Of a stretch of DNA of 64,000 nt, positions 8,890 through 53,761 are shown one piece after another. The DNA lies in NCBI GenBank assembly GCA_050298595.1, contig JBNKUM010000067.1, forward strand, positions 2,976 to 66,975, written 5' to 3'. The position numbers were made by a program, and so were the translations under genes. The notes below the pieces were generated by a model. It was not told the DNA's origin, did no database searches, and saw only the letters and a list, made by a program, of their open reading frames with translations. This DNA comes from Gammaproteobacteria bacterium. GTDB taxonomy: Bacteria > Pseudomonadota > Gammaproteobacteria > GCA-001735895. Every line of letters starts with the position of its first letter. Position 1 is the stretch's first letter.

Positions 8890-11800
8890 TTATTTTAAAT
8901 ACTGTTTTATAAAAGTACTTATCCCCTCAAGATCAAACCCTTTGGCCAGTTTGTTAAGCTTTCGGGCAAAAGAAATGTAAACCTCATTCTCTGCTTGCAG
9001 ACGAGAGGCCAGCTCCTGTATTTCAAAGACTTGTCCTATATCGGCTAACTGATACAACTCACGCAGCTGGTCGCTGGGCGGTGCAACCAGTGCTGCCTCG
9101 TGGTCGCTTTCTTCCTCAGCGTATACCAGGGTCAATCCCAGTTGCTTTTCCAGGATGTGGTAGATCTCATCGAAGCGGTAGGGCTTGCTGACGTAGTCAT
9201 CCATGCCTGATGCACGTAAGGTTTCCTCCTCCTCTTTTAGGGCGGATGCGGTAACGGCGACGACCTTCACCTGGTCCCCACCCGGCAATTCGCGAATGCG
9301 ACGGGTGGCCTCGTCCCCATCCATGACTGGCATGCGTCTATCCATCAAGATCAGGTCTGGCCTCCATTGCTGGAATATCTGTATACACTCTTCGCCGTTC
9401 TGCGCCACCTTTACGTCCAGGCCGAGGTCAGTCATCACCCTGGCGAGCAGGATTTGACTGTCCCGCTGATCCTCGGCGATCAGGATGCGGCGGGTGGCCT
9501 GCCCCGGCGCGAGGCCTGCCACTGCTCCGTGAGTTTCAGCACTGAGGCGGATCATCTCCGCTTCATCGGGCTCATTCAGCGGCAGATCGACGCGAAACAG
9601 CGAGCCCTGGCCCGGTTTGCTTTCAACGGAGACACTTCCACCCATCAGTTGCACGAACTGGCGCACGATGGCAAGTCCCAGGCCGGTCCCCTCCTGCGAA
9701 GAAGTGCCTGCGGACAGCTGTTCGAAAGGCTTGAACAGACGCCGTTGATCCTTTTTGCTAATCCCTGGGCCATTATCCTCGACCTCGATCAGTAGATGGT
9801 GATGGGCATTGTGTTTGCTGCGCAGGCGCATGGTTACGCTGCCCTGTTTGGTGAACTTCACCGCATTGCTCACCAGGTTGACCAGGATTTGCCGTAGCCG
9901 CGCCTCGTCGCCCTTGATGTAGCGAGGAAACGCTGACGACTGATCCAGCTCTAGTTGCAGCCCCTTCTGTTGCGCCTTCAGTCTCATCATGTCACTTACC
10001 TCACGCACCAGTTCATGCAGGTCAAAGGTGGAGATCTCCAGTTGCTGTTTACCCGCCTCAATCTTGGAGATCTCCAGTACATCGTTGATCAGCTTGAGCA
10101 GGTGATCGCCACTTTTGTTGATGATTTCCAGGTTTTCCCGCTGGCTGGAATTCAGAGACTGGTCCTTACGCATCAGTTGCGAGAAGCCGAGGATGGCGTT
10201 GAGTGGGGTGCGCAACTCATGGCTCATGTTGGCGAGGAAGGTGCTCTTCGCTTTGTTGGCCGCCTCTGCCGCATCACGCGCCAGGCGCAGCTCATCAGTA
10301 CGTTGCTGCACCAGCTCTTCCAGCTCATCCTTGTGCCGACGTAACGTCTCCTCTGCCTGTTTTTGATAGGTGATGTCGTGTGCAATCCCCAGCACGCTGA
10401 CCACCTTGTCCTCCTCATCGTGCTCTGGCGCATACAGGACTTCAAAAGTGCGCGGACCGTCGACCGTTTGCCATTGCATCTGAAGCTTCTGTGTTTGTGC
10501 GGTCGCAAACACCTGAAGGATGGATTGCTCAAGTTCGTAATTTATTGCGTCATCACCCGGCTTACCAATTTGTGTCGGGCTTTTGCCGATGAAGGTCTTG
10601 CGCGGGATGCCAAACGTTTTTTCTACAGACGGATTGACGAACAGGTGACGGCAGTCAGGGGCGAAACGGGTGATACAGTCAGGCAGGTTCTCGATCAGTG
10701 TGCGATAGTCTCGCTCTCGCGCTACCAGTGTCTGTTCTGCAAGTTTGCGCTCGCTAATATCCCGTACCAGGGCAAGATTATAACTCTGTTCGGCATATTC
10801 AATGAAATTGGCGCTAATTTCGACCGGTATGATACGCCCATCCTTTGCTCTATGCCGTCCCTCGAAGGTGATTGATCTCTTTTCCTGCAGATCCCGCCAA
10901 TGCTCCGGCCAGCGAACGGCCGGCCAGTCAGGGTCGATATCCTCCACGCCAGAAGCAAGCAATTCATCGTGAGAATAGCCCAGAATGCGACAGGCCTCCT
11001 CGTTCACGAAGTGGAATCTGGCCCTTTCGTCGATCAGGAATGCCGCTTCATGCACACTATTCAGGGCAAAGCTCAGCAGAGTGACCTGATGTTCGGTCTG
11101 CTTACGCTCTGTGATATCTTCCGAAATCCCCAGTAGATAGACAGGTAGTCCCTCTTTGTTACGCAGGGCAAGTTTTCTGGTATGCAGAATGCGGGTGCCG
11201 TTTACCGTTTCGACAGGCTCTTCCGGGATGTCCACTACACCCGTCTGAGTCAGCACATCACGGTCCTTGCTAATGAAGAAATCGGCCTGTTCCTTCGGAA
11301 AGAAGTCGTAATCATGCCGTCCCAGCAACTCTTCGCGACTAAGTCCCAACAGTTCCTGACCTGTACGGTTGAAGCGGATGAAGCTGAGATCTGATGCACG
11401 TTTCAGAAAGACCATTACCGGGAGATTGTCGACGATGTCGTCGAGCAGGTTTCGGCTCTCCGTGAGGGACCTGTTTAGTAGCAGCATGCCGATGCCAAAG
11501 AACAGCAGTAGCGTAAACACCACCGCGACGGCAACAACCTTGTCTCGGTAAAGTTCGTAAAAGTTTACCGGACGGTTAATAACGACCGAACCTTCAGGCA
11601 GAGACTTATCTTGCAGGTCGAAGCGCTGCAACTGCTCGTAATCGAAGAGGTAACGGTTCGCACTCTCCCATTCGATCGGGATTGAGTCTGCTTCTTCACC
11701 ATTGAGGATACGTATAACCTGCTGGGCTGCCACTTCGCCGTGGGCCTCGCCAGAGGTCAGCTTTCCACCGACAATACCATCGCCAAACATGTAATCCCAG

Positions 11801-12552
11801 ACCGAAAAGACTGGCTGCCTGCTGGCGTCACTGATGGCACGTACGGCAGTACTGCTGTCGATGGTCTCGCCATCATCGTTGGTGGGCCGGTTCAAGATGA
11901 AAACAACTGTATCTGACCCAGCGAGCCTGACTCTCTCCTCAATGTGCGAGAGTACTGGATCATCGAAAAGTTCAAGTTCAGAGGGCCTGCTCCGTTGTTC
12001 ATTGTCCTTTTGCAGACTCGCGAAGTTTCCACGGAAAGTCGGCGACTGCTCACCGAGTACAAGTACACGCCGCCCGGGCAGCAACTTATCAATGATCTCC
12101 AGCGTTTCCTTGAACGCAGCCTCTTCGGCAACACCCGTCAGGTTTTTGTATCGGTCCCGAATGTTGGGACTGAGGCCATTAATTCCACAGAAAACCACAG
12201 GTACGTCGGGCGCCAGCAGTGGACGCACGTCCAGCACAAAATCCAGAGCATTGTTGTCCGTTACCGCAATGACCTCAGGGGGATTCCTCTTGAATTTGCT
12301 CTCAAGGGTCTGCAGGAGATCCTGACGCATGAGATCCTTTTGCTCGCGGTAGCGTAAGGAATCGAGATACTCGATGTGCAGGTCAACCGGTATACCGTTA
12401 TTGGCAAGGGCGTTGATGAACCCCTGATGCTGAGAATCGGTCCAGGGCATGCCGCTGTGATAGGAATGGATTAATAGCACACTGTGACTCTGAGCGACAG
12501 CCGTTGCCGACAGCCCCAGCAGAGCAATGAACAAGACAAGTAGTCGAATCAT
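8890..12552 (-). CDS. Hybrid sensor histidine kinase / response regulator with an N-terminal periplasmic COG2984-type substrate-binding-like domain, multiple PAS domains and a C-terminal conserved tail
   Basis: 1220 aa in the order: signal peptide, periplasmic binding-protein-like domain, TM, four or more PAS/PAC repeats, HisKA ([17 protein letters not shown]), HATPase (GTGLGLAIV), REC (MDRRMPVMDG … D-x-Y-V-S-KP), then an 80-aa tail. Confidence 0.85.
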   Translation of the reverse strand: MIRLLVLFIALLGLSATAVAQSHSVLLIHSYHSGMPWTDSQHQGFINALANNGIPVDLHIEYLDSLRYREQKDLMRQDLLQTLESKFKRNPPEVIAVTDNNALDFVLDVRPLLAPDVPVVFCGINGLSPNIRDRYKNLTGVAEEAAFKETLEIIDKLLPGRRVLVLGEQSPTFRGNFASLQKDNEQRSRPSELELFDDPVLSHIEERVRLAGSDTVVFILNRPTNDDGETIDSSTAVRAISDASRQPVFSVWDYMFGDGIVGGKLTSGEAHGEVAAQQVIRILNGEEADSIPIEWESANRYLFDYEQLQRFDLQDKSLPEGSVVINRPVNFYELYRDKVVAVAVVFTLLLFFGIGMLLLNRSLTESRNLLDDIVDNLPVMVFLKRASDLSFIRFNRTGQELLGLSREELLGRHDYDFFPKEQADFFISKDRDVLTQTGVVDIPEEPVETVNGTRILHTRKLALRNKEGLPVYLLGISEDITERKQTEHQVTLLSFALNSVHEAAFLIDERARFHFVNEEACRILGYSHDELLASGVEDIDPDWPAVRWPEHWRDLQEKRSITFEGRHRAKDGRIIPVEISANFIEYAEQSYNLALVRDISERKLAEQTLVARERDYRTLIENLPDCITRFAPDCRHLFVNPSVEKTFGIPRKTFIGKSPTQIGKPGDDAINYELEQSILQVFATAQTQKLQMQWQTVDGPRTFEVLYAPEHDEEDKVVSVLGIAHDITYQKQAEETLRRHKDELEELVQQRTDELRLARDAAEAANKAKSTFLANMSHELRTPLNAILGFSQLMRKDQSLNSSQRENLEIINKSGDHLLKLINDVLEISKIEAGKQQLEISTFDLHELVREVSDMMRLKAQQKGLQLELDQSSAFPRYIKGDEARLRQILVNLVSNAVKFTKQGSVTMRLRSKHNAHHHLLIEVEDNGPGISKKDQRRLFKPFEQLSAGTSSQEGTGLGLAIVRQFVQLMGGSVSVESKPGQGSLFRVDLPLNEPDEAEMIRLSAETHGAVAGLAPGQATRRILIAEDQRDSQILLARVMTDLGLDVKVAQNGEECIQIFQQWRPDLILMDRRMPVMDGDEATRRIRELPGGDQVKVVAVTASALKEEEETLRASGMDDYVSKPYRFDEIYHILEKQLGLTLVYAEEESDHEAALVAPPSDQLRELYQLADIGQVFEIQELASRLQAENEVYISFARKLNKLAKGFDLEGISTFIKQYLK

Positions 12553-21869: not shown

Positions 21870-22790
21870 ATGGAAATCCGTCAACTACAGACTCTGATCA
21901 CCCTGATCAATAATGACTTCAATGTTTCGGTCACTGCTGAAAAGCTATTTCTGGTTCAATCAGCAGTATCTCAACAGTTAAAACGTCTGGAGCTGGAGCT
22001 GGGTAGCGGTTTATTTATACGCAAGGGTAAGCGTATGACCGGCCTCACCCCATTTGGCGAACAGGTCGAACAACTGGCGTATGAAGCAATTCAGGTATTT
22101 AAAAATATTGAACGCCTGGCAGAGGATCAACTGCAACACAGCCAGGGCATACTACGTATTGGCTGTACGCATACTCAGGCGCGCTATATATTGCCAGCCG
22201 TAATCAATCTGTTCAATCGCAGCTACCCGGATGTTGAGCTACAGATGCATCAGGGCAATCCGCAACAGCTGGTTGAATGGGCCGTCCACGATGTAGTGGA
22301 TTTTTCTATCTGCACGGAAGAACTTGCTCAATCAGATAAGCTTGAGAGCATCCCCTGTTATCGTTGGAATCGTTGTCTTATCACTCTGCCTGATCATCCG
22401 ATTCAGCAACTGCAAAAGCCCACACTGGCTGACCTGTGCAAATATCCCATTGTTACCTATGTCGTGGGGTTTACCGGGCGTAAAAGTTTTAATCAAACCT
22501 TCGAAAAAGAAAAGCTTAAACCCAACACCGTACTCAGTGCTGCGGATACCGATATCATCAAGACCTATGTGCTGGATGGATTAGGCATTGGGGTCATCGC
22601 CAGTATGGCTTACAATGAAAACATTGACAAACAGCTTTGCTTTAAAGATTTAAGCCATCTTTTCCCCTGGGAAACCACCCGCATCGCCTACCTGAAAAAT
22701 AAGTATATTCGACGTTATCAGCAAACCTTTATCGATTTGTTTCTGGAAACCATCCGCAAAGATCAAAGCTCCCGGTTCGAAGCCTTATAG
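21870..22790 (+). CDS. LysR-family transcriptional regulator, CysB/Cbl-like
   Basis: N-terminal HTH (…LNVSSTAE.L…QSAVSQQLKRLE.ELG..LF.R.GKR…) closely resembles CysB-type regulators; divergent from the TusE-like gene. Confidence 0.7.
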   Translation: MEIRQLQTLITLINNDFNVSVTAEKLFLVQSAVSQQLKRLELELGSGLFIRKGKRMTGLTPFGEQVEQLAYEAIQVFKNIERLAEDQLQHSQGILRIGCTHTQARYILPAVINLFNRSYPDVELQMHQGNPQQLVEWAVHDVVDFSICTEELAQSDKLESIPCYRWNRCLITLPDHPIQQLQKPTLADLCKYPIVTYVVGFTGRKSFNQTFEKEKLKPNTVLSAADTDIIKTYVLDGLGIGVIASMAYNENIDKQLCFKDLSHLFPWETTRIAYLKNKYIRRYQQTFIDLFLETIRKDQSSRFEAL

Positions 22791-22791
22791 G

Positions 22792-23217
22792 TTAATCAGT
22801 ATCGCGCACCTTCGAACGCAGATTTTTGATCTGTCCTTTATGAGTTTTTGAATCCATACGTTTTCGTTTTGCCGCTCTGGAGGGTTTAGTTGCAATTCGC
22901 TTCTTCTGACTGATGTTGACACTCTTTATCAATTCAGCCAATCGAGCGAATGCATCATCACGATTTTTTTCCTGAGTCCGATATCGTTGCGCCTTAATCA
23001 CTATGACGCCTTCTTTACTGATACGTTTATCCTTCAGATTAAGCAGGCGCTGTTTATAAAAGTCAGGCAGGGACGAACTTTCAATATCAAAGCGGCAATG
23101 TATCGCACTGGAAACCTTATTGACGTTCTGGCCACCTGGACCCTGTGCGCGGATGGCTTCGAGCTCTATCTCGGTTTCGGGCAGTGAAACGTTAGAAGAA
23201 ATCTTTAACGCAATCAT
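22792..23217 (-). CDS. arfB: Alternative ribosome-rescue factor B (peptidyl-tRNA hydrolase)
   Basis: 141 aa with a GGQ motif (GPGGQNVNKVSSA) and a basic C-terminal tail. Confidence 0.85.
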   Translation of the reverse strand: MIALKISSNVSLPETEIELEAIRAQGPGGQNVNKVSSAIHCRFDIESSSLPDFYKQRLLNLKDKRISKEGVIVIKAQRYRTQEKNRDDAFARLAELIKSVNISQKKRIATKPSRAAKRKRMDSKTHKGQIKNLRSKVRDTD

Positions 23218-23271
23218 ATTGTTCGCATGGGAGGTTAGATATTAATACCTGTATAGCCTTTTGTAGGTTGG

Positions 23272-24741
23272 TCATTCTCCACGCTGTTGATCAATACGTC
23301 GTCTGAACGAAGCCATAATGCTTTTATATAACTGATGCCCCAACACCTTGTCTTCTACTTCGGAATCTATACTGGGGTTATCATTCACTTCGATCACAAA
23401 TACACCCGCATCGGTTTCTTTTAGATCTACTCCATATAGACCATCACCAATCAGGTTAGCTGCTTTGACTGCGGTCTTAACTACCTTTTTGGGTGCAGCT
23501 TCTATGGTCATAGTTTCAAAGTCACCGCTATAGTTTTCACCTGCCGCATGATCGTAGATTTGCCAATGTCCGGAAGACATCATGTATTTACACACAAACA
23601 GAGGTTTACGATCGAGTACTCCTACGCGCCAGTCATAATCTGTGTACATGTATTCCTGCGCGAGGATAAGGTCAGAATCGCGAAACAGCTTTTGACAGGT
23701 AGATTTCAGCTCTTTTAAGTTTTCAGCCTTGTAAACACCACGAGAAAAGGAGCCGTCGGGTATCTTTAGAATAATAGGGAAACTAATATCCTTACTGAGT
23801 TGCTTTTCCTGACCCTTGCTCAGGATTAATGTCTTTGGTGTCGGCACCTTATTGGCACGTAATAATTCTTCCAGAAACACCTTGTTAGTACAGCGCAATA
23901 TCGAATCAGGATCATCCATCACCACCAGTCCTTCATTCTGCGCCCGGCGCGCAAAACGAAAGGTATGGTGATCTATGGAAGTCGTTTCACGAATAAACAG
24001 GGCATCATATTCAGCAATGCGACCGTAATCTTTTTTAGTGATCAATTCTGCGGACATGCCTGACTCGTTTGCCGCCTTAATAAAGCACCCGAGTGCCTCT
24101 GCATCTGATGGCGGTAATTTCTCCGCTGGATTGTGCAAGATTGCCAGTTCATATTTATATTGGCGCTGAGCTTTTGGTTTACGCCAGGGTTTACTCAGAT
24201 AAGCCTGTAACGCTGAGACAAAAGTAATCTTTTCCTGATCATCAAGAGACTTGAGTGAAACTGGCCGAACATCTTCTATCCTCCAACCTTTTTTATACCT
24301 GAAATCTACTCGCAGTAAAGGCGTACTAAAGATCTCAAAAATCTGTTGCCCCAGTTCCTGTAACTCAGGAATAGAGGAACGACCAAACATCACTTTGATT
24401 TTCAGGCGTGTTATTTCCGAAGATAGTCCTTTTTTACTGATGGCTTTTTCCACCTGGTTTTCAAGATTTCGTGTCATCAGGCTATAGATAGAGCGTCGAC
24501 TCAAATCCTGAATAGTGCGCACCGACGGTATTACCTTATGGTTCCTGGCTTCGGCTAGCAGTGAACAGTAATAGCCCAGACTGGCATAGCGATGACTGCG
24601 ACACAGATTGACGATGCGCAAGCGCTGCTCGGGGGGATAGCTTTTGCCTGTCAGGTATTCATTTACGGTAATCACTTTCAGATCCGGAAATTGCTTAGGC
24701 CAGTGTGACAGCTTTTCGACGATGACTATGTGCTCTGACAT
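23272..24741 (-). CDS. RimK-family ATP-grasp protein with an N-terminal domain of about 190 aa (function unknown)
   Basis: The C-terminal 300 aa form an ATP-grasp (RimK/LysX-like …GSFSRGVYK…AQEYM.TDYDWRVGVLD…GVDLKE…VIEVNDNPS); a unique N-terminal domain; adjacent to the GNAT/C39 gene. Confidence 0.7.
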   Translation of the reverse strand: MSEHIVIVEKLSHWPKQFPDLKVITVNEYLTGKSYPPEQRLRIVNLCRSHRYASLGYYCSLLAEARNHKVIPSVRTIQDLSRRSIYSLMTRNLENQVEKAISKKGLSSEITRLKIKVMFGRSSIPELQELGQQIFEIFSTPLLRVDFRYKKGWRIEDVRPVSLKSLDDQEKITFVSALQAYLSKPWRKPKAQRQYKYELAILHNPAEKLPPSDAEALGCFIKAANESGMSAELITKKDYGRIAEYDALFIRETTSIDHHTFRFARRAQNEGLVVMDDPDSILRCTNKVFLEELLRANKVPTPKTLILSKGQEKQLSKDISFPIILKIPDGSFSRGVYKAENLKELKSTCQKLFRDSDLILAQEYMYTDYDWRVGVLDRKPLFVCKYMMSSGHWQIYDHAAGENYSGDFETMTIEAAPKKVVKTAVKAANLIGDGLYGVDLKETDAGVFVIEVNDNPSIDSEVEDKVLGHQLYKSIMASFRRRIDQQRGE

Positions 24742-24762
24742 TCTTTTTCTCAGCCCGGGTAA

Positions 24763-25866
24763 TTATTTTTTGTGGTTATTCGAAATCAATACGACAGCCT
24801 GCAGGCCAGAACGACCGAAACGTGCCATGCGTGAGAACTCCCTGCGCGGGATAGCGATATTGATTGAGTCAGTTGGTGTTTCTCCTTCCTCACGATCAAC
24901 AAAAGGGTCATTCACGTATACCAGATGCTGGTCAAATCCACAAACGACTACCCAGTGAGGATTCTTTTCACCATAAATACGGTAAGAACTGATCAGTACA
25001 ATCGGAATCGCACCTGAGTTAAGCCTGGCTTCCATCTCCGGTTGTTCCAGGTTCTGGTAATGCACCGGGATCTGGTAATCTTTGATCTCCCCCAGCATCT
25101 CTTCATGTACCAGACGCATGACTTCTTTCTTTTCTGGGCTACGTACTGTTTCCACAAATGGCACGCCCTGATCATTAACATGAATAACTGCATTGAATCC
25201 ACGCTTATGAGCCGCTAGCGCCAGACCAAAGGGGCCGCAGCCGCCATGGCCGGATGTCATAAATATCGTAGTCGCTTCACGCCATAGACGGATTTCCAGT
25301 GTTCTATCCAGTGTCAATTCAGGTTGCAGACTTTTCATTGCCATCATCAAAGCAGAAGCACCGCAGGTAAATTCCAGTGTCTGCTCGTAAAAAGGCATAT
25401 TGGCTAATTGTGGAGGCTGATCTGGTTGCAGGCTTTTCTCGAAGCGTAGTGCGGGCATATGATCTTCATAATAATCTGCCAGTACGCCAAAGCGATGGTA
25501 GCCCAGTCCTTCAAACAGTCGCAATGACGCAGCATTGTCTTCTCGTATTTCAAGGCGAATATAAAAACGTCCCTGATCACGTGCCGCGGTTTCGGCAGCA
25601 TTGACCAGCCGCCTGCCTATTCCCATGCCACGAGCGCGTTCCTCGATGGCAATAGAATACAGACGTGCAACCGAGGTTGCCCGGTTATATAGCACCATGA
25701 CATATCCAGCCAGCCCTTCATTATCTTCAGATAACAGTATATCCGCATGAGAGCGGGTCAGCAGATAACGCCATTGTCGACGTGAAATCAGGTCTGTCTC
25801 GAAACAACGTTTTTCTATACCCGTGAGCTGGTCAATATCAGAAAGTTTGGCAGGGCGGATCAACAA
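24763..25866 (-). CDS. Bifunctional GNAT N-acetyltransferase / peptidase C39-like protein
   Basis: N-terminal GNAT region (…RLYSIAIEERARGMGIGRRL…) and a C-terminal papain-like region with a candidate catalytic Cys (FTCGASALMMA) and a downstream His; paired with the RimK-family gene. Confidence 0.65.
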   Translation of the reverse strand: MLIRPAKLSDIDQLTGIEKRCFETDLISRRQWRYLLTRSHADILLSEDNEGLAGYVMVLYNRATSVARLYSIAIEERARGMGIGRRLVNAAETAARDQGRFYIRLEIREDNAASLRLFEGLGYHRFGVLADYYEDHMPALRFEKSLQPDQPPQLANMPFYEQTLEFTCGASALMMAMKSLQPELTLDRTLEIRLWREATTIFMTSGHGGCGPFGLALAAHKRGFNAVIHVNDQGVPFVETVRSPEKKEVMRLVHEEMLGEIKDYQIPVHYQNLEQPEMEARLNSGAIPIVLISSYRIYGEKNPHWVVVCGFDQHLVYVNDPFVDREEGETPTDSINIAIPRREFSRMARFGRSGLQAVVLISNNHKK

Positions 25867-26155
25867 AGTATCGCAATTGGGATATTTAGAAATCTTATCT
25901 TAGCAACTTTGAATAAAAAGGAAATGGATATTTTTTAAAGTTGGAATAGCTACTATGACTGTTATTTTTGGCATTAAATTGAATTCCTGACCAATATGAA
26001 AATCCGATAAAACTACTTTTTTGTGATCGTGCTCGTTAAAATACAGCCTTAACCACCAGATGAACCACAACAGTGATCAGTTTTTTTATCTGTTACATGA
26101 TGCCGTATCGTAAGCAACCACACACTTTACTTGCAAAAGAACATCGGGGTTCCTG

Positions 26156-27283
26156 ATGAGTTTCTGCCGCTTTTACGATAATGCAGACTGCCGTTCCTGT
26201 TCGTTGCTTGAGCTCTCCTACCCAATGCAATTGCAACAGAAAGAACAACAACTGCATCAGATTCTCGATCACTTCAAACCAGCCCACTGGCTTGCGCCGA
26301 TAACCGGATCTCAAACAGGTTTCCGCAACAAAGCAAAAATGGTCGCTACAGCGTCACCCCAGGGTATCGTACTCGGATTGTCTGGTGGCATTAGTCTGAT
26401 CGAATGTCCACTGTATGAAAGCAACATGCAAAGGGTATTGCAGCAGGTGCAGCGCTGGTTGAATACTATAGGGGTCAAAGCATATGACGTAAAACGTAAA
26501 AGCGGTGAATTAAAGTATGTATTATTCACCCGCAGCACATACGATAACTCGATGATGCTGCGTTTTGTATTACGCTCGACGTCCAGTATTGATGTTCTGC
26601 GCAAATCTCTCAACTTACTACTCAATAGCGCAACTGAATTAAAAGTAGTCAGTGTCAATCTACAACCTGTACACATGGCGATACTCGAGGGTGATGAAGA
26701 GATTTTTCTCACAGAGCAAACTGTGCTGGAGGAATCCCTGAATGGAATCCCGCTGTTCATCCGGCCCAAAAGCTTTTTCCAGACCAATCCTGAAGTAGCG
26801 GCAAAGCTATACCAGAGCGCAGCTGAATGGGTCGACTCTACCGGCGCTAAAACTATTATGGATCTGTTTTGCGGTGTCGGCGGATTTGCCCTGCATGTCG
26901 CGAATAATGATCGTAACGTCATTGGCATTGAAATCGAAGAGGAAGCCATCATCTGTGCGTCCAAATCTGCCAGGCGACTCGGCATCAATACTCTGAGCTT
27001 TAAAGCACTGGATGCAACGAGTTACAGCACAGAAACATCTACTCCGCCTGAGGTACTCATTGTCAATCCTCCGCGCAGAGGATTAGGCCAACAGCTATGC
27101 AACTGGATAGAAAGCAGTTCGCCTCAGCATATTATTTATTCAAGCTGTAATGCCGCCAGTCTCGGCCAGGATCTGACTGCAATGGAATCTTACAGTGTTG
27201 CCAAAGTACAGATGTTTGATATGTTCCCTCACTCGCGGCATTTCGAGACACTGGTTTATCTGGTAAAAAAAACAGGTAAATGA
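26156..27283 (+). CDS. rlmC: 23S rRNA (uracil747-C5)-methyltransferase
   Basis: 375 aa with an N-terminal Cys cluster (C…C..C), a SAM-binding motif (DLFCGVGGF) and a C-terminal catalytic nucleophile region (SSCNAASL), consistent with RlmC/RumB. Confidence 0.8.
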   Translation: MSFCRFYDNADCRSCSLLELSYPMQLQQKEQQLHQILDHFKPAHWLAPITGSQTGFRNKAKMVATASPQGIVLGLSGGISLIECPLYESNMQRVLQQVQRWLNTIGVKAYDVKRKSGELKYVLFTRSTYDNSMMLRFVLRSTSSIDVLRKSLNLLLNSATELKVVSVNLQPVHMAILEGDEEIFLTEQTVLEESLNGIPLFIRPKSFFQTNPEVAAKLYQSAAEWVDSTGAKTIMDLFCGVGGFALHVANNDRNVIGIEIEEEAIICASKSARRLGINTLSFKALDATSYSTETSTPPEVLIVNPPRRGLGQQLCNWIESSSPQHIIYSSCNAASLGQDLTAMESYSVAKVQMFDMFPHSRHFETLVYLVKKTGK

Positions 27284-27286
27284 TAT

Positions 27287-30100
27287 TTAGTCTTTCAATG
27301 CTTTTAATATGGTCGTGTAGTCAAAGTTCCTGGCGAGCTGAGTCAGTTTGCTCTGTAATTCCTGGTCGTGCATCGAAACCTGCTGGATGACCGCCTCAAT
27401 GCGCTTGGACTCCAGGCTTTCTAGCACTTCAACGAACTCATTGCGCAGTGCTTCAGGCAGGCTATTCAACATCTGCGGCGTTAACGATATATCCGGTTCT
27501 ATTACGTCTGATTCCACAGCGCTCTCATAAAGATATTTCACGCCTAGCTGTCTTGAAAGGCAATCATAAATCTCGCCCGGTCGGTAGGGCTTGCGCACAT
27601 AGTCATCCATGCCACTAGCAAGCATTTCGTCCCGCTCTTCGTCAAACGCCGATGCAGTCACTGCAGCAATCTTAACCTCCTTGCCACCCGCTAATTCACG
27701 GATGCGCCGTGTCGCCTGTATGCCATCCATCACAGGCATGCGTCTATCCATCCAGATGAAATGTGGATGCCAGCTCTCAAACAGTTGTACCCCCTGCTCA
27801 CCGTTCTCGGCTATCCTGACCTTAAAACCAACAGATTCCATAAACCTGCTCAGTAGCAACTGATTATCACGCTGGTCTTCCACGATCAAAATACGATACT
27901 CGCCCTGGTCAGGGGCCAGCGCCATCACTTCGTCCTTGACGATCACCTGCTCTGCCATAGTAATATCTGCCTCCTGTGCTTCAATCAGGGGTAGGTCGAG
28001 CCTGAACAACGAGCCTTTACCTGGAGCACTTTCCAGCCAGATATTCCCGCCCATCATCTTTACAAATTGACGCGTAATCGTTAATCCCAGCCCGGTGCCT
28101 TTATTGGTACCCTGTTCGCCAAGTTGCACAAAAGGCTCGAAAACCTTTTGCTGGTCTTCAACCGCTATGCCAATGCCAGTGTCCTCTACATCGATCAGCA
28201 GATGAGAGATCTTATTATCCTTTGTGTCCAGGCGTAGCGTGACCCCCCCCTGCTCAGTATTTTTGATGGCGTTGCTTACCAGATTGATCAGAATCTGCCG
28301 TAGACGGGCCTGATCACCGACAATGAAACGTGGGAATAGAGAACTCTGGTCGATCCTTAATTGCAGGCCTTTGTTGAAAGCACGTTGCTGCATCATGTCA
28401 ATAATATCGCGCACCAGAGTACCCAGATCGAAGGCTGCATTTTCCAGATTCACCTGTCCCGCTTCGATCTTGGCCATATCTAGCACATCGTTAATCAGCG
28501 CCAGCAGATGTTTACCGCTACGACTAATAATTTCGATGTTCTCACGCAGGGATTCGTGTAGTAATGGATTATTGGTCATGAGTTCGGAGAACCCGAGGAT
28601 GGCGTTCAGAGGTGTGCGAAGTTCATGACTCATATTGGCCAGGAAGGCACTCTTGGCACGGCTGGCTGATTCAGCGTGTTCCTTGGCAGATAGCAACTGC
28701 CGATTTGAATCGGCTAACTCGTGAGTACGTTCATTCACCTTTGCCTCCAGGCCCCCAATTAATGCATGCAATTGACCTGCAATATTATTAAAGACGGATG
28801 TCAGCTCACTGATTTCATCTTCCGATTGGGGTGCTATTGGATGCTGTAGATAACGTCTCAGAGCAATACGCTGGCTATACTCTCTATCTACTTCTTCTTC
28901 CACCATCTCAGGTTTCTCCAGACCCATCGCAGATACTGCCCTGGTAAGCGCCCTGATCGGTGCAACGATTCTACTGATCAAGGAGTATCCGACGGCACCT
29001 CCCAACACAAGAATAAACACAGACGCGGCAATAATGCCCATGACGGTTTGGCGGATGGTGGCAATGGTGTTTTCCCTCGAAAGTGCCTGACTCAGAATAA
29101 GCGAGCTACCATCCTCTGCTATCTGCCAGGGCATAGAAGCCTGGTAGTAGGAATCCCCTCCTATATTTACGGTATGCAACTGGATAAGCGGGTCTCTTTG
29201 CGCAGACAAAACTTCAGTTGGTGTAGCCAGATCTACCAATTGAACACGCTGCTGCCCATCTGCGGAGATAATAGCCGGCAACAAACCCGTCTTCTCAGTA
29301 AGATTTTGCAGAAAGCCTTTGTCAAATACCTGAGTAAAAACAAACATACCGATCCTGACCGGTAAGTCCTCCTGCGTTAGCTGGGCTTGCAAAGCTGTCG
29401 TAGGCGTGGCTATGCTCAGGTTTTCGGCAATGACTTCGTTAAAAGACTGGCGAATCATACCTTGAATCGGCACTATCACGTGCAGCTCGATAACCTCTTG
29501 TGCAGGAAAATCGAAGCTTACCGTCACCCTGTCCACATTGGGAAAGTGGCGATGGATTGATCCTGGCAGTGGGATTTCTGACCAGTTACGCCAGTCATCC
29601 AGCGGTACCTTACCATTTCTGTACTGCTGAATCCCAACCACCCTAGTTTGACTATCGTGTCGCTTTATCATGCCCGCCGCCTGCGGCGTCACAAAATGTG
29701 ACAGGTCATCATCTAGATACACCGCCACACTGGACAGGCGTGCGGAGAGCAGGATTAACTGTAAGCGGTTTAAGGATGTGACCCGGTTAAGACTTACAGC
29801 GCTGTCGAGAGGAGCGCTAGGTTGATTTTTCAGCTTGAGTAGCTGGCTGTATAAAACAGCCATATCGCTAAGATTCTTTTCGTCACGCGCGGCTTGCATA
29901 GACACATTAGACATACGGTTGCGCATTTCCTGTAGATCGTTTTGAAATACGATCAACTCACGTGACAATCGGTTATAGGCTTCTGCCTGACTCTCGCGGT
30001 TAATCAGGTATGAAGCCAGCAGGGCATTAAGCAGCGTAACCGCTAACAGAAATGCCGCAAAGATAGCCAGTAGCTTGTATTTAATACTTACAATTTTCAC
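27287..30100 (-). CDS. Hybrid sensor histidine kinase / response regulator (copy 1) with a periplasmic sensor domain of about 320 aa
   Basis: Order: TM, periplasmic domain, TM, HAMP-like region, HisKA ([17 protein letters not shown]), HATPase (GTGLGLTI), REC (…MDRRMPVMDG…DDYVRKP), then a conserved tail of about 80 aa. About 55% identical to the kinase at 31766-34588. Confidence 0.85.
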   Translation of the reverse strand: MKIVSIKYKLLAIFAAFLLAVTLLNALLASYLINRESQAEAYNRLSRELIVFQNDLQEMRNRMSNVSMQAARDEKNLSDMAVLYSQLLKLKNQPSAPLDSAVSLNRVTSLNRLQLILLSARLSSVAVYLDDDLSHFVTPQAAGMIKRHDSQTRVVGIQQYRNGKVPLDDWRNWSEIPLPGSIHRHFPNVDRVTVSFDFPAQEVIELHVIVPIQGMIRQSFNEVIAENLSIATPTTALQAQLTQEDLPVRIGMFVFTQVFDKGFLQNLTEKTGLLPAIISADGQQRVQLVDLATPTEVLSAQRDPLIQLHTVNIGGDSYYQASMPWQIAEDGSSLILSQALSRENTIATIRQTVMGIIAASVFILVLGGAVGYSLISRIVAPIRALTRAVSAMGLEKPEMVEEEVDREYSQRIALRRYLQHPIAPQSEDEISELTSVFNNIAGQLHALIGGLEAKVNERTHELADSNRQLLSAKEHAESASRAKSAFLANMSHELRTPLNAILGFSELMTNNPLLHESLRENIEIISRSGKHLLALINDVLDMAKIEAGQVNLENAAFDLGTLVRDIIDMMQQRAFNKGLQLRIDQSSLFPRFIVGDQARLRQILINLVSNAIKNTEQGGVTLRLDTKDNKISHLLIDVEDTGIGIAVEDQQKVFEPFVQLGEQGTNKGTGLGLTITRQFVKMMGGNIWLESAPGKGSLFRLDLPLIEAQEADITMAEQVIVKDEVMALAPDQGEYRILIVEDQRDNQLLLSRFMESVGFKVRIAENGEQGVQLFESWHPHFIWMDRRMPVMDGIQATRRIRELAGGKEVKIAAVTASAFDEERDEMLASGMDDYVRKPYRPGEIYDCLSRQLGVKYLYESAVESDVIEPDISLTPQMLNSLPEALRNEFVEVLESLESKRIEAVIQQVSMHDQELQSKLTQLARNFDYTTILKALKD

Positions 30101-30184
30101 TATTAATTAGCATCAGTAATCGATGCACGTCCCTCAATCAATCAGCTGATAAAAAACAGGGGCTCGTTGCACATCCGTTCAACA

Positions 30185-31546
30185 CTACCGATGAGCATAA
30201 CCGTTATGATCTTGAATGTCCTGATCAATCTTTTCGGCTGCTTTACTGAGTTCGGCCTGCACATCAGCCCCTTTAATTATATTATCTACCGCCTCGGCGA
30301 AGACTTTGGTGATAGTTGCATAGGCTGGCGTGAGGGGACGAGGCACAGCCCAACCGGCTTCTATCTGTTGAACATACACGTTTAAAGGGCCACCTGGCTG
30401 GTAAAGCTCTGACCTGGCAAATGCCGATTTACGCGCCGGTACACCAGGGTGAATACCTGTCCAACGCACAATCTTGTCGGGTTGCAGAATATAGTCCAGG
30501 ATCGCCCAGCTCCCTTCAGGATTCTGGCAGGAGCTGGTGATACCAAAATTCCAGGCACCCAAACCAGTTTTGGGTCCATTGCCAAAGTCAGGCATGGGGA
30601 TGACAACCAAATCTTCGCCCAAAGCATCCGCATAGCTGCTATAGGTCCAGTGTCCTACCCAGGAAAGCGCCGCTTTGCCAGAAGCAAAATCCGTATCTCC
30701 CTGTGGGCTGGGGTTAGCCCAGCCCTTCTGGAACCAGCTCTGGAAATGCTGCATAGCTGTGACGGATTGAGGTCCATCCAGTACGCCTTTGGCAGACTGG
30801 TAGTTATTGCGATCAATCAAGTCACCGCCGAAAGACTGCAGGATGGGTGAAAAACCATAGGTAAAGAATTCACCGCGCCCATAGTTGATTTTCATATCCA
30901 GTGGATATTCAACGTCTGGGACGGCGGCCAGTTTTTCTAAAGCCGCTTCAAACTCAGCCAGATCCCATGGCTGCTGGATGGTAGGTATGCGCACGCCAGC
31001 TGCCTTTAGGTACTGGCGATTGCCATACATCGCCAGACCAGAGTCAACTATACCCAGTGTATACAGATTATTATTGTAGGTTCCCTGGGCAATGATAGAG
31101 GGCAGGAAATCGGCCTTCATCTGTGCTGACACAAAGCGGTCTATGGGTTGCAGGTAACCCAGCCAGGCCAGATATGAGACCATAGGTCCGTCAAAGAAAA
31201 GCAGGCAGGGCAGATCACCTGTGCGCCCGGCAGCCAGGATGCGGTCGGTGTAAATGCCTTCTGGCACCAGTGTCATCTCGGCTGAGTAGCGATCCTGCTC
31301 CTTGTTAAAGTCCTTCAGATTGAGTTCCATTGCTTTTAAGGCATTACCGGTACCGGCATTGAACCATACCGTCACGATTTGATTCCTGCTAACTGCGGCT
31401 GATGGAGGCTTAATCTTAGTGGGCGCTGGTTCAGGCGCTATACTGGCTGGTGGGCTTTTAGCAGTGGGTTCACTGGGTGGATCGCAAGCCGTTAGCACGG
31501 ATGCTAGCATGAATAAAATTATTAGATAACTAACCTTCTTGTGCAT
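30185..31546 (-). CDS. Periplasmic solute-binding protein, ABC family 1 (sugar-type), lipoprotein; partner of hybrid kinase copy 1
   Basis: Signal peptide with lipobox (LTAC); typical family-1 binding-protein length and motifs; about 65% identical to the copy at 34615-35982; directly upstream of, and co-directional with, the kinase. Confidence 0.75.
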   Translation of the reverse strand: MHKKVSYLIILFMLASVLTACDPPSEPTAKSPPASIAPEPAPTKIKPPSAAVSRNQIVTVWFNAGTGNALKAMELNLKDFNKEQDRYSAEMTLVPEGIYTDRILAAGRTGDLPCLLFFDGPMVSYLAWLGYLQPIDRFVSAQMKADFLPSIIAQGTYNNNLYTLGIVDSGLAMYGNRQYLKAAGVRIPTIQQPWDLAEFEAALEKLAAVPDVEYPLDMKINYGRGEFFTYGFSPILQSFGGDLIDRNNYQSAKGVLDGPQSVTAMQHFQSWFQKGWANPSPQGDTDFASGKAALSWVGHWTYSSYADALGEDLVVIPMPDFGNGPKTGLGAWNFGITSSCQNPEGSWAILDYILQPDKIVRWTGIHPGVPARKSAFARSELYQPGGPLNVYVQQIEAGWAVPRPLTPAYATITKVFAEAVDNIIKGADVQAELSKAAEKIDQDIQDHNGYAHR

Positions 31547-31765
31547 GACTTTTCACCTGTAAATGAATCGAATACCTTTTCAATCGTCGAGCTCTAATGA
31601 TCTGCCTGTCAGCAGCGGGATGCATGCGCTACTGCTTTTACTTTTATCTTCATACCCTTCAGACTCCTGAGTGTGAAAACCTATTTCTTACTTACGCGAT
31701 ATATAGCCCAGTTTGCACAGCGGTGTATGAATAATAAACGCCTCAGCCTTAGATCGACAGGCCAA

Positions 31766-34588
31766 TTATTCAGCCTTATTTAGTGCTCTTAATATAGCAG
31801 GGTAATCAAACTTACTGGCGAGCTGGCTGAGTGCCCTGTGTAACGCCGGGTCAATCGCCTCGGTGCGCTGGATCACTGCCTCAATGCTCTCGGGCTCCAG
31901 ACTTTCCAGTACCTCAATAAGCTCACTACGTAACACTTCTGGTAACTTTTCCAGCATCTGTGGCGTTAATACTACATGCTCATCTTGCGCCTTTGACGCA
32001 GTACTTCCGTACAGATATTTAACGCCCAGGTGTTTTGATATCACATCGTAGATTAGCGTCGCTCTGTATGGTTTGCTCACGTAATCGTCCATACCGATTT
32101 TTAGAATTTCATTGCGCTCCTCTTCAAAGGCCGAGGCGGTCACCGCGACAATCTTTACCTCTTTGCCGTCAGGCAATTCCCGGATACGTCGTGTTGCCTG
32201 CATGCCATCCATCACCGGCATATGTATATCCATCCAGATTAAATGTGGATGCCAGCTCTGAAACAGTTGTACACCCTGCTCACCATTTTCCGCCAGCTTT
32301 ATCTGGAAACCAACACTCTCCATAATTTCAGAAAGAAGGAGTTGATTGTCGCTCTGGTCTTCGACGATCAGGATACGGTATTCGGGTTGTCCCGGCGCAA
32401 GGCTAGTCACAACCCCCCTGCCAATCTGATCCGGTTTGCTGATATCCTGTTCCAGTGCTTCCTGCAAGATCAGTTCTATGCTGAATACCGTGCCTTTATC
32501 AATCTCGCTTTGCAGGCTGATACTGCCACCCATCATTTGCACGAACTGGCGCGTAATAGCCAGCCCGAGTCCCGTGCCCTTACTGCTATCCTTTTCACCC
32601 ACCTGTACGAAGGGGTCGAAGATAAGTTGTTGATCTTCAGGGCTGATACCTATGCCTGTATCCTCAACCTCGATCAGCAGATGAGATATTCTGTTTTGCT
32701 TTGTGGCCAGACGCAGAGTCACGCCCCCCTGCTGGGTAGCTCTGATGGCATTCCCTATCAGATTGATCAGAATCTGGCGCAGGCGCGACTCGTCGCCTAC
32801 GATGTAACGAGGGAACTGCGATGACTGGTCGACATGTAATTGCAGATCCTTATTTTCCGCGCGTATGCGCATCATATCGATAACATCTCGTAGCATACCG
32901 CCCAGATCAAAAGGCTCATTCTCCAGTTGTACCCGCCCGGCTTCTATCTTGGCCATTTCCAACACATCGTTGATCAGCGTTAGCAGGTATTCGCCACTAC
33001 GATTAATAATATTATTATTGTGCTGTAATCTTTCAGGCAGTGATGGATCCTGGTTCATCAGGTTGGAAAACCCGAGGATAGCGTTCAATGGGGTACGCAG
33101 TTCGTGGCTCATGTTGGCAAGGAAAGTACTCTTGGCTCGGTTGGCAACTTCGGCCTTTTCTTTGGCCGCCTGTAACTCCTGAGTGCGTTCGTCAACGCGT
33201 TGCTCCAGTGTTTCAAACGATTGCCGCAGTTGCCTGATCATGGCATTGAAGGCGGCGGCCAGTTGCCCTACTTCATCACTGGCTTTAAGGTCAATCTCGA
33301 TCAGCTTATCCGAGACTACAGGCGTATCTTTCGCTGTGGAACTATTAATCTGGGTGTTCAGACCGATGCGTGAAACGCTTTCCGTTAAGGCCACAATCGG
33401 TTTGACCAGACGATCTAACAGTATATAGCCCAATATCCAGACCACGATCAAAACCAGAGTAGCCAGGCCAATGAGTGCAGTAACGGTTTCTCGTATCTTC
33501 TGGGAGGCGCTCGCCCCTGATTGCGTAAACCCGATAATCAGCCGGGCTTTATCGCCATAGTGCAACAGGGTCAGGGCCTGGTAATAGGTTTCATCATCCA
33601 CGCTCAGAATCCTTTGTTGCATCGGTTGTTCAGGTGTCGCCTGACTCTGTTGCACCCATTGCACCAGATCTTCCGGCTTCATCTTCATTTTGACGATTTC
33701 GATTTGATGCATCCCATCTAACGAATACAGTGCTGGTAATAAACCACTTTTCTGCGCAATGCCTTGCAAAAATGCCTGGTCAAAGACCTTCTTGAATACA
33801 AAGGCACCAATGAGAACTGGTTTGATTTGGTCGGGATTTTTCTGGTTAAGCGCTTCCTGAGAAGCGATGACTGGATTGTTGACCACAAATCCTTCGGAGG
33901 AACCCAGGGTAATATTGTTTCGCATTACCGTTCGAGTAATTGCCTGTACCGGGACAACGATTTGCAATACCAACGCCTGCTGTTCAGAAAAATAAAAGGA
34001 AATCATGGGTTGCCTGGGTAATGTAATTTGAGATGAGATTAATGGAGGAGGGGTACCCAGCGGCCATATTGGCCAGTTATTGAACTTCATCTCTCCGCTC
34101 TGATCTGGATCAGTTTTAATCAGCCTCTGCTGCCCCTCCCGAAACACACTGATGCCAGCCTCAGTAGTAGTCACGAAATGACTTAACTCATTGCCCGTGT
34201 AAACGGCGGCGCTGGAAAATCCGGCCGTACGCAGAATAATCTGAAACCGATTCAGTGAAATGGTTTTATCGAACAGGAATCCGCGTTCATTCTTTGATGC
34301 TAGCTCAGGATAGTTCTTAAATTGCTGTGTTTTTGCATACAGCGTAGCCAGATCACTCAAGTTATCGATTCCGGTAACATTTTTTTCGGCAACCCTGCGC
34401 AGATCAGTTATCGTTTCCTGCAACTCGTACTGTAACAGGTCGGTCTGTTTGGTCAGGCTGCTAAACGCCTCTCGCTCGCTTTGTTGCGTGGTCAGGTAGA
34501 TGGCGAGTGCTACATTAAGCCCAGCGATAATGATCAGGGCCGTGCTAAACGCCAGCAGCAATTTCGTCTTGATACCCGATATGTTCAC
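31766..34588 (-). CDS. Hybrid sensor histidine kinase / response regulator (copy 2)
   Basis: Same architecture as 27287-30100 (His[19 protein letters not shown]; [13 protein letters not shown]…DDYVSKP; conserved tail). Confidence 0.85.
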
Positions 34589-34614
34589 TGTAACTTGTCA
34601 GCTTTTTCTGTGCA

Positions 34615-35982
34615 CTATTTGATCGGATAGCCGCCGTGATCTTTTATATCCTGGTCAATTTCCTGCGCCGCCCGGTGAAGTTCCGTTTTGACGTCTGCGC
34701 CATTAATAATATTCTCCATCGCTTCGGCAAAGACCTTTGAGATCACGGCATACGCTGGAGTGATCGGACGAGGAATGGCGCGCTCGCTTTCCAGTTGTTG
34801 TGCAATCAAATGTAAGGGGCCTGATTCACCATACAATTTTGACTGTGCCAGCACTGACTTCCGGGCCGGTGGGCCTCCGTTTTCGTTCGTCATACGTAAC
34901 ATTTCCTGCGGGGATAGCAGGAACTCGATGAATGTCCAGGCGCCAGTGGGATCCGGGCAATTGCTGGATATCCCCCAGCTCCAGCTACCCATCGCGGTTT
35001 TTGACCCATACCCAAAATCAGGCTGCGGTAACAACACCAGATCTTCCCCCAGAGCCTCGGCATGCGGTTTGTACATCCAGTGCCCCACCCAGGCGAGGGC
35101 CGCTTTTTTAGATCCGTAAAAATCGTCGTCCGTGGTCCTGGATTTGCCGGCCCAGCCCTTTTCAAACCAGCTCTGAAAGTGTTGCATGGCCTCAATCGAC
35201 TGGGGACTATCCAGCACGCCAGTTGCATGCTGGTAGCTGCTGCGATCAATCAGATCACCACCAAATGACTGGATGATGGGCGTAAAACACCATGAATAAA
35301 ACTCGCCAGGACCATAATTAATTTTCATATCAATTGCATACTCTACGTCAGGCAGGGCGGTCAGTTTTGCCAGCGCCTCTTCAAATTCGACCAGATTCCA
35401 CGGTTTTTCAAAGGTCGGTATGCGGATTCCAGCCGCGTTCAGATAGCGGCGATTGCCGTAGATTACCAGCCCTGAGTCAAACTGTCCGAGGCTATAGAGC
35501 TGTCCGTTGAAGGTTCCCTGGGTGAGAATCGAGGGCAATAAGTCGGCTTTTAGATCTGCTGAAACAAAACGGTCAATCGGCTGCAGATAGCCTGGCCATG
35601 CAAAGTTATAGAGGTATGGACCGTCAAACTCCAGGGCGCAGGCCAAACTACCAGACTGTGCGCTGCCAATGATCCGGTCAGCATAGATTTCCGGTGCAAT
35701 CGGCACATATTCTATGGTGTATTTATTTTGAGCCTGCTCAAAGGCTTCCACCGACTTAGCAAACACATCACCTTCTATGCTGCCAGGTAACATATGCGTC
35801 CAGACGCTGATCACTTTGCGCCTGTCTGTCTGGGGCGAGGGTGTTGAAGGTAGCGCTGTTGGTACTGAAGAGGGAGCGGCTAAAGCAGTGGATGTAGTCA
35901 AGTCCGAAATCCTGCAAAAAGTTAGTATCATGGCCACCAGAATCAGCTTATTTTGATAAAGTATTTTCTTTCTCATTTTCAC
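34615..35982 (-). CDS. Periplasmic solute-binding protein, ABC family 1 (copy 2), partner of hybrid kinase copy 2
   Basis: Signal peptide; paralog of 30185-31546; the 27-bp gap to the kinase start implies co-transcription. Confidence 0.75.
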   Translation of the reverse strand: MKMRKKILYQNKLILVAMILTFCRISDLTTSTALAAPSSVPTALPSTPSPQTDRRKVISVWTHMLPGSIEGDVFAKSVEAFEQAQNKYTIEYVPIAPEIYADRIIGSAQSGSLACALEFDGPYLYNFAWPGYLQPIDRFVSADLKADLLPSILTQGTFNGQLYSLGQFDSGLVIYGNRRYLNAAGIRIPTFEKPWNLVEFEEALAKLTALPDVEYAIDMKINYGPGEFYSWCFTPIIQSFGGDLIDRSSYQHATGVLDSPQSIEAMQHFQSWFEKGWAGKSRTTDDDFYGSKKAALAWVGHWMYKPHAEALGEDLVLLPQPDFGYGSKTAMGSWSWGISSNCPDPTGAWTFIEFLLSPQEMLRMTNENGGPPARKSVLAQSKLYGESGPLHLIAQQLESERAIPRPITPAYAVISKVFAEAMENIINGADVKTELHRAAQEIDQDIKDHGGYPIK

Positions 35983-43224: not shown

Positions 43225-43566
43225 ATGAATGAATTCTTTAAAGTTCTGGCCGATGAGACAAGATTAAGGTGTCTGGCATTAATTTTTGAAAACGATGAGC
43301 TTTGTGTATGTGAATTAATACATGCGCTGGATCTACCGCAATCTAAAATATCGCGTCATTTATCCATCATCAAGTTGAATAATCTAATCACCCAGAGGCG
43401 TGAAGGTCAATGGGTGTTATATTCAAAAGAACCGACGTTATCAGACTTCAAGACAGGTTTGATCAAAATGACTATCGATGAGTTAAGTAAAACCAGCATC
43501 TTCAAGCAGGATAAGAAAAGATTAGCCACTATGAATAATCGACCAGCCTTGAGTTGCTGTAAGTAA
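43225..43566 (+). CDS. arsR: ArsR/SmtB-family metalloregulatory transcriptional repressor
   Basis: 113 aa with a winged HTH and the metal(loid)-binding ELCVCEL motif in helix 3. Confidence 0.8.
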   Translation: MNEFFKVLADETRLRCLALIFENDELCVCELIHALDLPQSKISRHLSIIKLNNLITQRREGQWVLYSKEPTLSDFKTGLIKMTIDELSKTSIFKQDKKRLATMNNRPALSCCK

Positions 43567-44519: not shown

Positions 44520-44527
44520 GGTGAAAA

Positions 44528-44794
44528 ATGATAGAAGTTAAGGTTTTAGGTTCTGGTTGTGCTAATTGTAAAAACACACAAAAGTTGATCGAAGAGGTTA
44601 CCGATGAAAATGGCATAGCCATAAACCTGCAGAAGGTAGAGGATATGGCTGAGATAATGTCGTATGGCATTATGTCAACGCCGGGTGTCATCGTTGATGG
44701 TAAAATAGCTCACGCAGGTGGCGTGCCAGATAAAAAAACAATCCTGTCCTGGTTTAAGGCATCCTGTTGCCCAGGTGATGATAATTGCTGTTAG
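44528..44794 (+). CDS. Thioredoxin-fold 'redox-active disulfide protein 2' family protein with a C-terminal Cys-rich tail (CCPGDDNCC)
   Basis: MIEVKVLGSGCANCK…YGIMSTPGVIVDGK matches the small TM0996/MTH895-type thioredoxin family (CxxC); a 15-aa tail carries two vicinal Cys pairs. Confidence 0.7.
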   Translation: MIEVKVLGSGCANCKNTQKLIEEVTDENGIAINLQKVEDMAEIMSYGIMSTPGVIVDGKIAHAGGVPDKKTILSWFKASCCPGDDNCC

Positions 44795-53700: not shown

Positions 53701-53761
53701 GGATTGATATCATCAGGATGAAAAGACAAAAAAGAATGGCAAGGCATCTGGCCAACCGGGA

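Follow-up and report, generated by a model that had tools for sequence, protein, structure and literature searches.

A conserved domain without a phosphotransfer histidine follows the receiver of hybrid histidine kinases in a gammaproteobacterial contig and in its relatives

The DNA considered here is a 64,000-nucleotide stretch from a Gammaproteobacteria bacterium (GenBank assembly GCA_050298595.1, contig JBNKUM010000067.1, positions 2,976 to 66,975 of the forward strand), referred to below as the window. It encodes four hybrid histidine kinases. In three of these, termed A, B and C, the polypeptide runs 65-85 residues beyond a complete receiver (REC) domain, and this C-terminal tail is the subject of the analysis. 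HisKA, HATPase_c and Response_reg are present in A, B and C alike (Pfam E 1e-20 to 1e-33 for each domain), identifying them as hybrid histidine kinases, and the Pfam REC match ends at residue 1134 of 1220 in A, 846 of 937 in B and 848 of 940 in C. In the fourth kinase (54331-56232), the REC match ends at residue 627 of 633 and there is no tail. An initial annotation, made from the letters alone, had drawn this same division between three tailed kinases and one without, and the open reading frames (ORFs) and Pfam REC ends confirm it. The tail occupies the position of the histidine phosphotransfer (HPt) domain in the kinase, and it is a real, widespread and conserved domain. The parts of the three kinases, in window coordinates, are as follows.

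8890-12552, minus strand: hybrid kinase A, 1220 amino acids; periplasmic ABC_sub_bind-like domain, three PAS, HisKA, HATPase_c, REC and A-type tail (ORF, Pfam)
9142-9492, minus strand: kinase A receiver, residues 1021-1137, acceptor Asp1071 (Pfam)
9091-9141, minus strand: kinase A linker, beginning LGLTLVY, residues 1138-1154 (by analogy with the modelled C linker)
8893-9090, minus strand: kinase A tail, divergent A-type, residues 1155-1220, LVAPPSDQ...KQYLK (profile comparison)
27287-30100, minus strand: hybrid kinase B, 937 amino acids; periplasmic domain of about 330 residues, HAMP, HisKA, HATPase_c, REC and tail (ORF, Pfam)
27548-27898, minus strand: kinase B receiver, residues 735-851, acceptor Asp785 (Pfam)
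27485-27547, minus strand: kinase B linker (LGVKYLY...), residues 852-872 (C counterpart predicted to be disordered)
27290-27484, minus strand: kinase B tail core, residues 873-937, LTPQMLNS...KALKD (best domain 93.9 bits against the tail profile)
31766-34588, minus strand: hybrid kinase C, 940 amino acids, a paralog of B with identical architecture (ORF, Pfam)
32030-32380, minus strand: kinase C receiver, residues 737-853, acceptor Asp787 (Pfam; predicted with high confidence, see below)
31970-32029, minus strand: kinase C linker (LGVKYLY...), residues 854-873, predicted to be disordered (low confidence at model residues 125-132)
31769-31969, minus strand: kinase C tail core, residues 874-940, predicted short helix and four-helix bundle (structure model; 92.1 bits against the tail profile)
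9121-9141 (A), 27527-27547 (B) and 32009-32029 (C), minus strand: codons of the LGxxYxY linker motif (alignment)

The tails of B and C are 54% identical to each other, and their combined REC and tail parts are 67% identical. Against a profile made solely from the tails of other organisms, both score 107-108 bits. A consensus drawn from 373 non-identical tails reads xLTPeMLavLPxeLRxELrxALESLDsERIxavIxqVaxxDxxLxktLsrLAdNFDYPAILkAL. The pattern quoted in the initial annotation, L..LP..LR.E...L..L...IEAVIQ...L..LA..FDY..IL.AL, is essentially this family consensus and holds for B and C, but A, which had been included under it, fits only loosely. Against the B/C profile, the core of the A tail reaches 5.4 bits, and 12 of 2000 shuffled sequences do as well. 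Searches with the REC and tail of A returned close relatives with an identical ending, together with distant ones sharing the motif VAPPxExLxxLYQLAxxGxxxxIxExAxxLxxxxxxYxPFAxxLxxLAxxFxxxxIxxFIxQYL. The A-type and B/C-type tails have equal position, length and preceding REC clade, and since their profiles align over 55 columns (hhalign, P=2.8e-4), the two subtypes are likely homologous by sequence, though more weakly than the earlier reader had implied. Kinase A is accepted as a putative divergent member of the family, with less certainty than B and C.

The receiver that precedes the tail retains its catalytic set in the family alignment, with D8, D51 and K103 invariant and T81 present in at least 90% of sequences. 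Its closest structural matches are the relay-kinase receivers SLN1, DivK and GacS D1. As far as sequence tells, the tail is tethered to one clade of phosphorylatable receivers, at the C-terminus of hybrid histidine kinases. Directly after REC helix 5 lies LGxxYxY, whose G and last Y are at least 90% conserved; the motif is predicted to be non-regular and of low confidence despite this conservation, and it may be a functional linear motif. The input regions differ: the ABC_sub_bind-like periplasmic domain of kinase A, followed by the three PAS domains, scores 25.4 bits, just under the Pfam cut-off of 25.9, and the periplasmic domains of B and C (about 330 residues) are without a Pfam match.

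The family extends far beyond this contig. Searches with the REC and tail of kinase C gave 384 homologs at E≤1e-10, and most of the 120 listed span 89-100% of the query; a word-index protein search with the tail alone returned three fragments only. When a tail-only profile was run against 1.84 billion cluster representatives, 5,561 matched at E≤0.001 and 888 at E≤1e-10. Among the best 150 of the 5,561, all 102 representatives of at least 400 residues have the order histidine kinase core, REC, tail, and the tail lies at the extreme C-terminus, with a median of 3 residues beyond it. Within these 102, an additional REC at the N-terminus occurs in eight, two matches to the kinase core in one and a double tail in one. 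The tail is found in alpha-, beta- and gammaproteobacteria and in a Geobacter metagenome-assembled genome (MAG), often in several copies per genome (pattern FDYPAILxA); the complete genome of Methylomonas sp. TEB (NZ_CP180476.1) is an example with many tail-kinases. Two proteins, P0140 (383 residues) and P0189 (852 residues), carry a tandem double tail behind one REC, with the variant LPAEW...FEYD, an arrangement that fits an autonomous module. The majority of stand-alone REC-tail hits come from error-prone assemblies in which a frameshift has split the kinase gene (L002, L092, L093, L094, L095). Only two stand-alone genes look genuine (L003 3228-3932 and L091 10001-10669), and each follows, at a distance of 165-186 bp, a complete hybrid kinase gene with a REC of its own.

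Existing annotation does not cover the domain. Pfam-A 2025 gave no significant match, with best E values of 0.0036 for the three window tails and 0.0017 for 61 tails, far below gathering scores; matches in NCBIfam 20.0 (E≥0.01) and among Protein Data Bank sequences (E≥0.018) were likewise not significant. The best of the weak Pfam hits is Cut8 (PF08559, profile positions ~53-102), met in 26 of 61 tails with a best E of 0.0017, under the gathering score. Kinship with Cut8 was rejected, the hits being far below threshold and taken as probably helical noise. A relationship to sigma-70 region 4 or a similar helix-turn-helix was also rejected, as no profile or sequence similarity extends beyond the common LPxxLR start. 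Full-text searches of the published literature found no description of the tail. Hybrid kinases and regulators of cyclic di-GMP (c-di-GMP) are known and ordinary as components; in the databases and literature searched, the domain, its abundance, its place as a histidine-less occupant of the HPt slot and the association with HD-GYP and GGDEF-EAL proteins described below are all undescribed.

Several comparisons bear on whether the tail is an HPt domain. The highest histidine frequency in any of the ~68 columns of the 373 tails is 0.17, and no histidine position is common to the tails of A, B and C. At E≤10, none of the three window tails hits the Pfam Hpt family, which is also absent from the weak hits of the 61 tails, and a profile of five HPt sequences matches none of the 102 long family members. 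In hhalign comparisons with five E. coli HPt domains, neither the B/C-type (P=0.02, probability 2%) nor the A-type (P=0.19) was significant; the non-significant alignment sets I-x-Q-I-a of the tail opposite the H-x-x-K-G of HPt. A Foldseek search with the tail returned nothing below E=2.7. Because no column exceeds 17% histidine and there is no Pfam Hpt and no significant hhalign or Foldseek match, the sequences indicate that the tail is not a canonical HPt or phosphate carrier. The initial annotation had noted the missing HxxKG histidine, and this stands across the family: no canonical HPt with an overlooked histidine emerged from the Pfam and hhalign comparisons or the histidine counts.

Structure prediction with AlphaFold2 (AF2) is consistent with the four-helix bundle that had been suggested. 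For the tail alone (61-sequence alignment), a short helix and four helices of 11-13 residues are predicted, with a core confidence score (pLDDT) of 83-90 and the initial ~20 residues disordered. For REC and tail together (54 sequences), pLDDT is 95-99 over REC and 94-98 over the tail, falling below 50 at residues 125-132, and the overall predicted template modelling score (pTM) is 0.65. The high scores of the two parts, the low score of the linker and the pTM point to two rigid domains on a flexible tether. In these models, the tail is predicted to be an independently folding unit of about 65 residues, a small acidic four-helix bundle on a flexible linker of about 15-25 residues. An unstructured, low-complexity extension peculiar to these proteins was not what was found; the tail is conserved far beyond orthologs.

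Kinases B and C lie in a same-strand cluster, the members of which, together with a stretch compared with a close relative, are listed here.

36122-37927, minus strand: REC-GGDEF-EAL response regulator, first gene of the same-strand cluster (Pfam)
34615-35982, minus strand: periplasmic solute-binding protein (SBP_bac_8/SBP_bac_1), just upstream of kinase C (Pfam)
30185-31546, minus strand: second solute-binding protein, just upstream of kinase B (Pfam)
22963-27989, compared with L001 5890-10889: decayed kinase B copy in a close relative

The order in the cluster is REC-GGDEF-EAL, solute-binding protein, kinase C, solute-binding protein, kinase B, with the solute-binding protein and kinase pair in tandem duplicate (27287-35982). 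The solute-binding protein encoded upstream of C is probably the ligand-binding partner of the sensor. In a related MAG (contig JBNKMF010000136.1, GCA_050292965.1), DNA identity to the window is 98.6% until inside kinase B, at about residue 704, where the break point meets a transposase fragment (HTH_33); beyond it, REC (134 residues) and tail (61 residues) are separate ORFs, which marks this as a decayed copy of kinase B.

A Pfam scan of all 50 non-overlapping window ORFs of at least 70 residues found no HPt, and neither did a six-frame scan of the window with a small HPt profile at E≤1, so that the absence of an HPt from the 64 kb, as earlier claimed, holds as far as these scans reach. The accompanying claim that no DNA-binding regulator is encoded was mistaken: Pfam identifies a LysR-type (21870-22790) and an ArsR-type (43225-43566) regulator. 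No response regulator with a DNA-binding output was found among the scanned ORFs. Elsewhere in the window, the tail-less CHASE8 hybrid kinase belongs to an apparent operon (51625-56232) with a TonB-dependent receptor and a YfiR/HmsC-like DUF4154 protein. The ArsR-type gene belongs to a cluster with an ArsP-type permease and a thioredoxin (43225-44794), adjoined by a DDE transposase (DUF772/DDE_Tnp_1, 41397-42830). At 23272-25866, a RimK-like ATP-grasp protein with an RLAN domain adjoins a fusion of GNAT and DUF3335 (peptidase C39-like), a pair also kept in the related MAG contig L001.

In relatives, one large subclade shows a genomic link between the tail and c-di-GMP regulators. The set comprised 79 loci from alpha-, beta- and gammaproteobacteria and Geobacter, with flanks of up to 10 kb and ORFs scored with small local profiles. 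A c-di-GMP gene lies within 500 bp of the tail-kinase in 43 of 75 evaluable loci. A REC-HD-GYP protein (about 341 residues, Pfam Response_reg and HD_5) directly follows 30 of 90 tail ORFs, and of the remaining tail ORFs some are followed by REC-GGDEF-EAL and some by a second tail-kinase. Kinase and regulator overlap by 4 bp at 14 of 36 junctions, and most others are within 24 bp. The RECs of the adjacent regulators group into a single subfamily and, irrespective of output domain, share 45-54% identity with the REC of the window REC-GGDEF-EAL protein; for an ortholog from a Hahella MAG (L017), identity with the window regulator rises to 65% in the REC and 67.5% along the whole protein. Between the internal REC of kinase C and the REC of the window regulator, identity is only 32%. 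No HPt-like ORF was found among the 5,734 ORFs of the 79 loci or in nine Pfam-annotated neighbourhoods. Because both the gene neighbourhoods of relatives and the similarity of the regulator RECs back the link, the REC-GGDEF-EAL protein is probably the cognate regulator of B and C.

The tail may be an output appendage of the internal receiver, that is, a protein-protein docking or regulatory module, a reading put forward tentatively here. Solute-binding proteins would report ligand to the periplasmic domains of B and C, and the kinase would autophosphorylate and then phosphorylate its own REC (Asp785 in B, Asp787 in C). The tail would help to link the kinase and its REC with the REC-GGDEF-EAL regulator, one way being to keep the regulator REC at the kinase, and c-di-GMP turnover could in this way be controlled without a locus-encoded HPt. 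Partner binding by the tail, the identity of the partner and the phosphoryl route are what we infer here. The initial annotation had also proposed a docking or output module. The folded helical nature, conservation, missing histidine and HPt position of the tail agree with that proposal, but its argument from the absence of an HPt in the window carries little weight, given that genes for stand-alone HPts commonly lie at other places in a genome.

A number of observations weigh against the docking reading. Most conserved positions among the 373 tails are core hydrophobics and helix caps, and hence no obvious binding surface appears; the conserved charged or polar residues are R16 (82%), E18, D27, R30 (69%), D42 (90%), D58 (82%) and Y59. 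AF2 predicts no confident packing of the tail on REC. Kinase A is an orphan, lying between dus and a gene for a pyridoxal phosphate enzyme with no adjacent signalling partner. The link to c-di-GMP genes is not universal, as 30 of 75 loci have no such regulator despite at least 1 kb of downstream sequence. The locus search used a 12-sequence alignment and the single pattern FDYPAILxA and sampled only tails carrying it, the 79 loci include several paralogs from the same MAGs and are not independent, and the counts cover tail-kinases only, not hybrid kinases that lack the tail. Around other REC-tail hits, eight contexts annotated with Pfam showed no c-di-GMP regulator adjoining the tail gene, the nearest being a REC-DUF3369-GGDEF-EAL protein about 6.7 kb off at the edge of L095. 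Finally, the HPt searches cover the window and the loci of relatives, and a distant stand-alone HPt gene may lie elsewhere in the genome.

Other readings have been considered alongside docking. The tail could be a purely intramolecular element that dimerises the C-termini, or that packs on REC or the kinase core and tunes the kinase/phosphatase balance or the lifetime of the REC phosphate. This is conceivable if doubtful: the tail is always fused to one REC clade whatever genes adjoin, orphan kinases such as A carry it, and the conserved LGxxYxY junction suggests coupling to REC. However, the low confidence with which AF2 docks the tail on REC (pTM 0.65, disordered linker) and the apparently genuine REC-tail genes without a fused kinase (L003, L091) speak against it, and tandem double tails would be odd for a fixed latch. 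It is unlikely that the tail is a pseudo-HPt, a shrunken, histidine-less descendant of the HPt of an unorthodox kinase such as RpfC that still binds REC as a cis decoy or scaffold. The predicted helices, at 11-13 residues, are about half the length of HPt helices, hhalign gave P=0.02 (probability 2%) for the B/C-type and P=0.19 for the A-type, and neither the weak Pfam hits of the 61 tails nor Foldseek supplies an HPt. What recommends it is the hhalign pairing of I-x-Q-I-a with H-x-x-K-G, non-significant as it is, together with a position equal to that of the RpfC HPt and a commonest neighbour, REC-HD-GYP, of the same type as the RpfC partner RpfG (PMC5391125).

A sensor of small ligands, in which the tail would bind c-di-GMP or another nucleotide and feed its level back to the kinase, is very improbable. 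All that suggests it is the proximity of HD-GYP and GGDEF-EAL regulator genes and the few conserved charges (R16, R30, D42, D58), whereas no PilZ RxxxR, I-site RxxD or MshEN motif is visible by eye in the consensus and no such Pfam family appeared in the scans. The tail is also acidic and very small, its conservation is mostly structural, and many tail-kinases have no nearby c-di-GMP gene. Chance similarity, or a functionless disordered or low-complexity extension, has nothing in its favour beyond missing database annotation and is already refuted by the 888 representatives at E≤1e-10, the 92-108 bits of B and C against foreign profiles, the pLDDT of 94-98 and conservation across four bacterial classes.

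The docking reading has a more far-reaching form, which we think improbable. Kinases of this kind would constitute a widespread, undescribed pathway class in which a histidine-less post-receiver domain replaces the HPt and docks a dedicated regulator (REC-HD-GYP or REC-GGDEF-EAL) through the REC of the latter, with the internal receiver gating either direct His-to-Asp transfer to the regulator or, via binding alone, its activity. If true, a phosphorelay-shaped architecture would work without a second histidine; hybrid kinases are normally thought to require an HPt step to reach a response regulator. Thousands of hybrid kinases carry a conserved, histidine-less domain of undescribed function in the HPt position, and within a large subclade its neighbours are translationally coupled c-di-GMP regulators. 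Defining the tail would fill an annotation gap, as a candidate new Pfam family, and could show how an internal receiver controls signalling to c-di-GMP enzymes.

Compared with HPt domains (PF01627; ArcB, BarA, TorS, EvgS, RpfC), the tail differs in having no conserved histidine and no profile similarity, and in size, at about 65 residues with helices of 11-13 residues against chains or segments of about 116-125 residues in the HPts compared. Plant pseudo-HPts of the AHP6 type lack the phospho-histidine and are inhibitors of the relay. They share with the tail the concept of a histidine-less module that possibly still binds receivers, but AHP6 is recognisable by sequence as a full-length HPt. 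That is not so for the tail, which is also joined in cis to a bacterial kinase. In their gene order, kinases B and C, each following a solute-binding protein gene, resemble TorS/TorT and LuxQ/LuxP. The best NCBIfam models for B and C are TorS, BarA and LuxQ over the kinase-REC core, all below curated cut-offs; TorS carries an HPt and LuxQ stops at REC, and neither has the tail, the NCBIfam alignments ending at REC or in the linker.

The nearest parallel in layout is RpfC/RpfG of Xanthomonas, a comparison of layouts and not of sequences. RpfC has the order histidine kinase, REC, HPt, with phospho-sites D512 and H657, and passes phosphate via His657 of its own HPt; RpfG is a REC-HD-GYP c-di-GMP phosphodiesterase (PMC5391125). 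The four-step relay through a C-terminal HPt has no counterpart in A, B and C, which contain no HPt by Pfam, and the tail cannot relay phosphate by known chemistry; the input domains are also unrelated. Like RpfC, however, the tail-kinases are hybrid kinases encoded with a REC-HD-GYP or REC-GGDEF-EAL regulator and carry the tail in the slot of the RpfC HPt, and in the window the same type of pairing is present, with the REC-GGDEF-EAL gene (36122-37927) sharing the strand of B and C.

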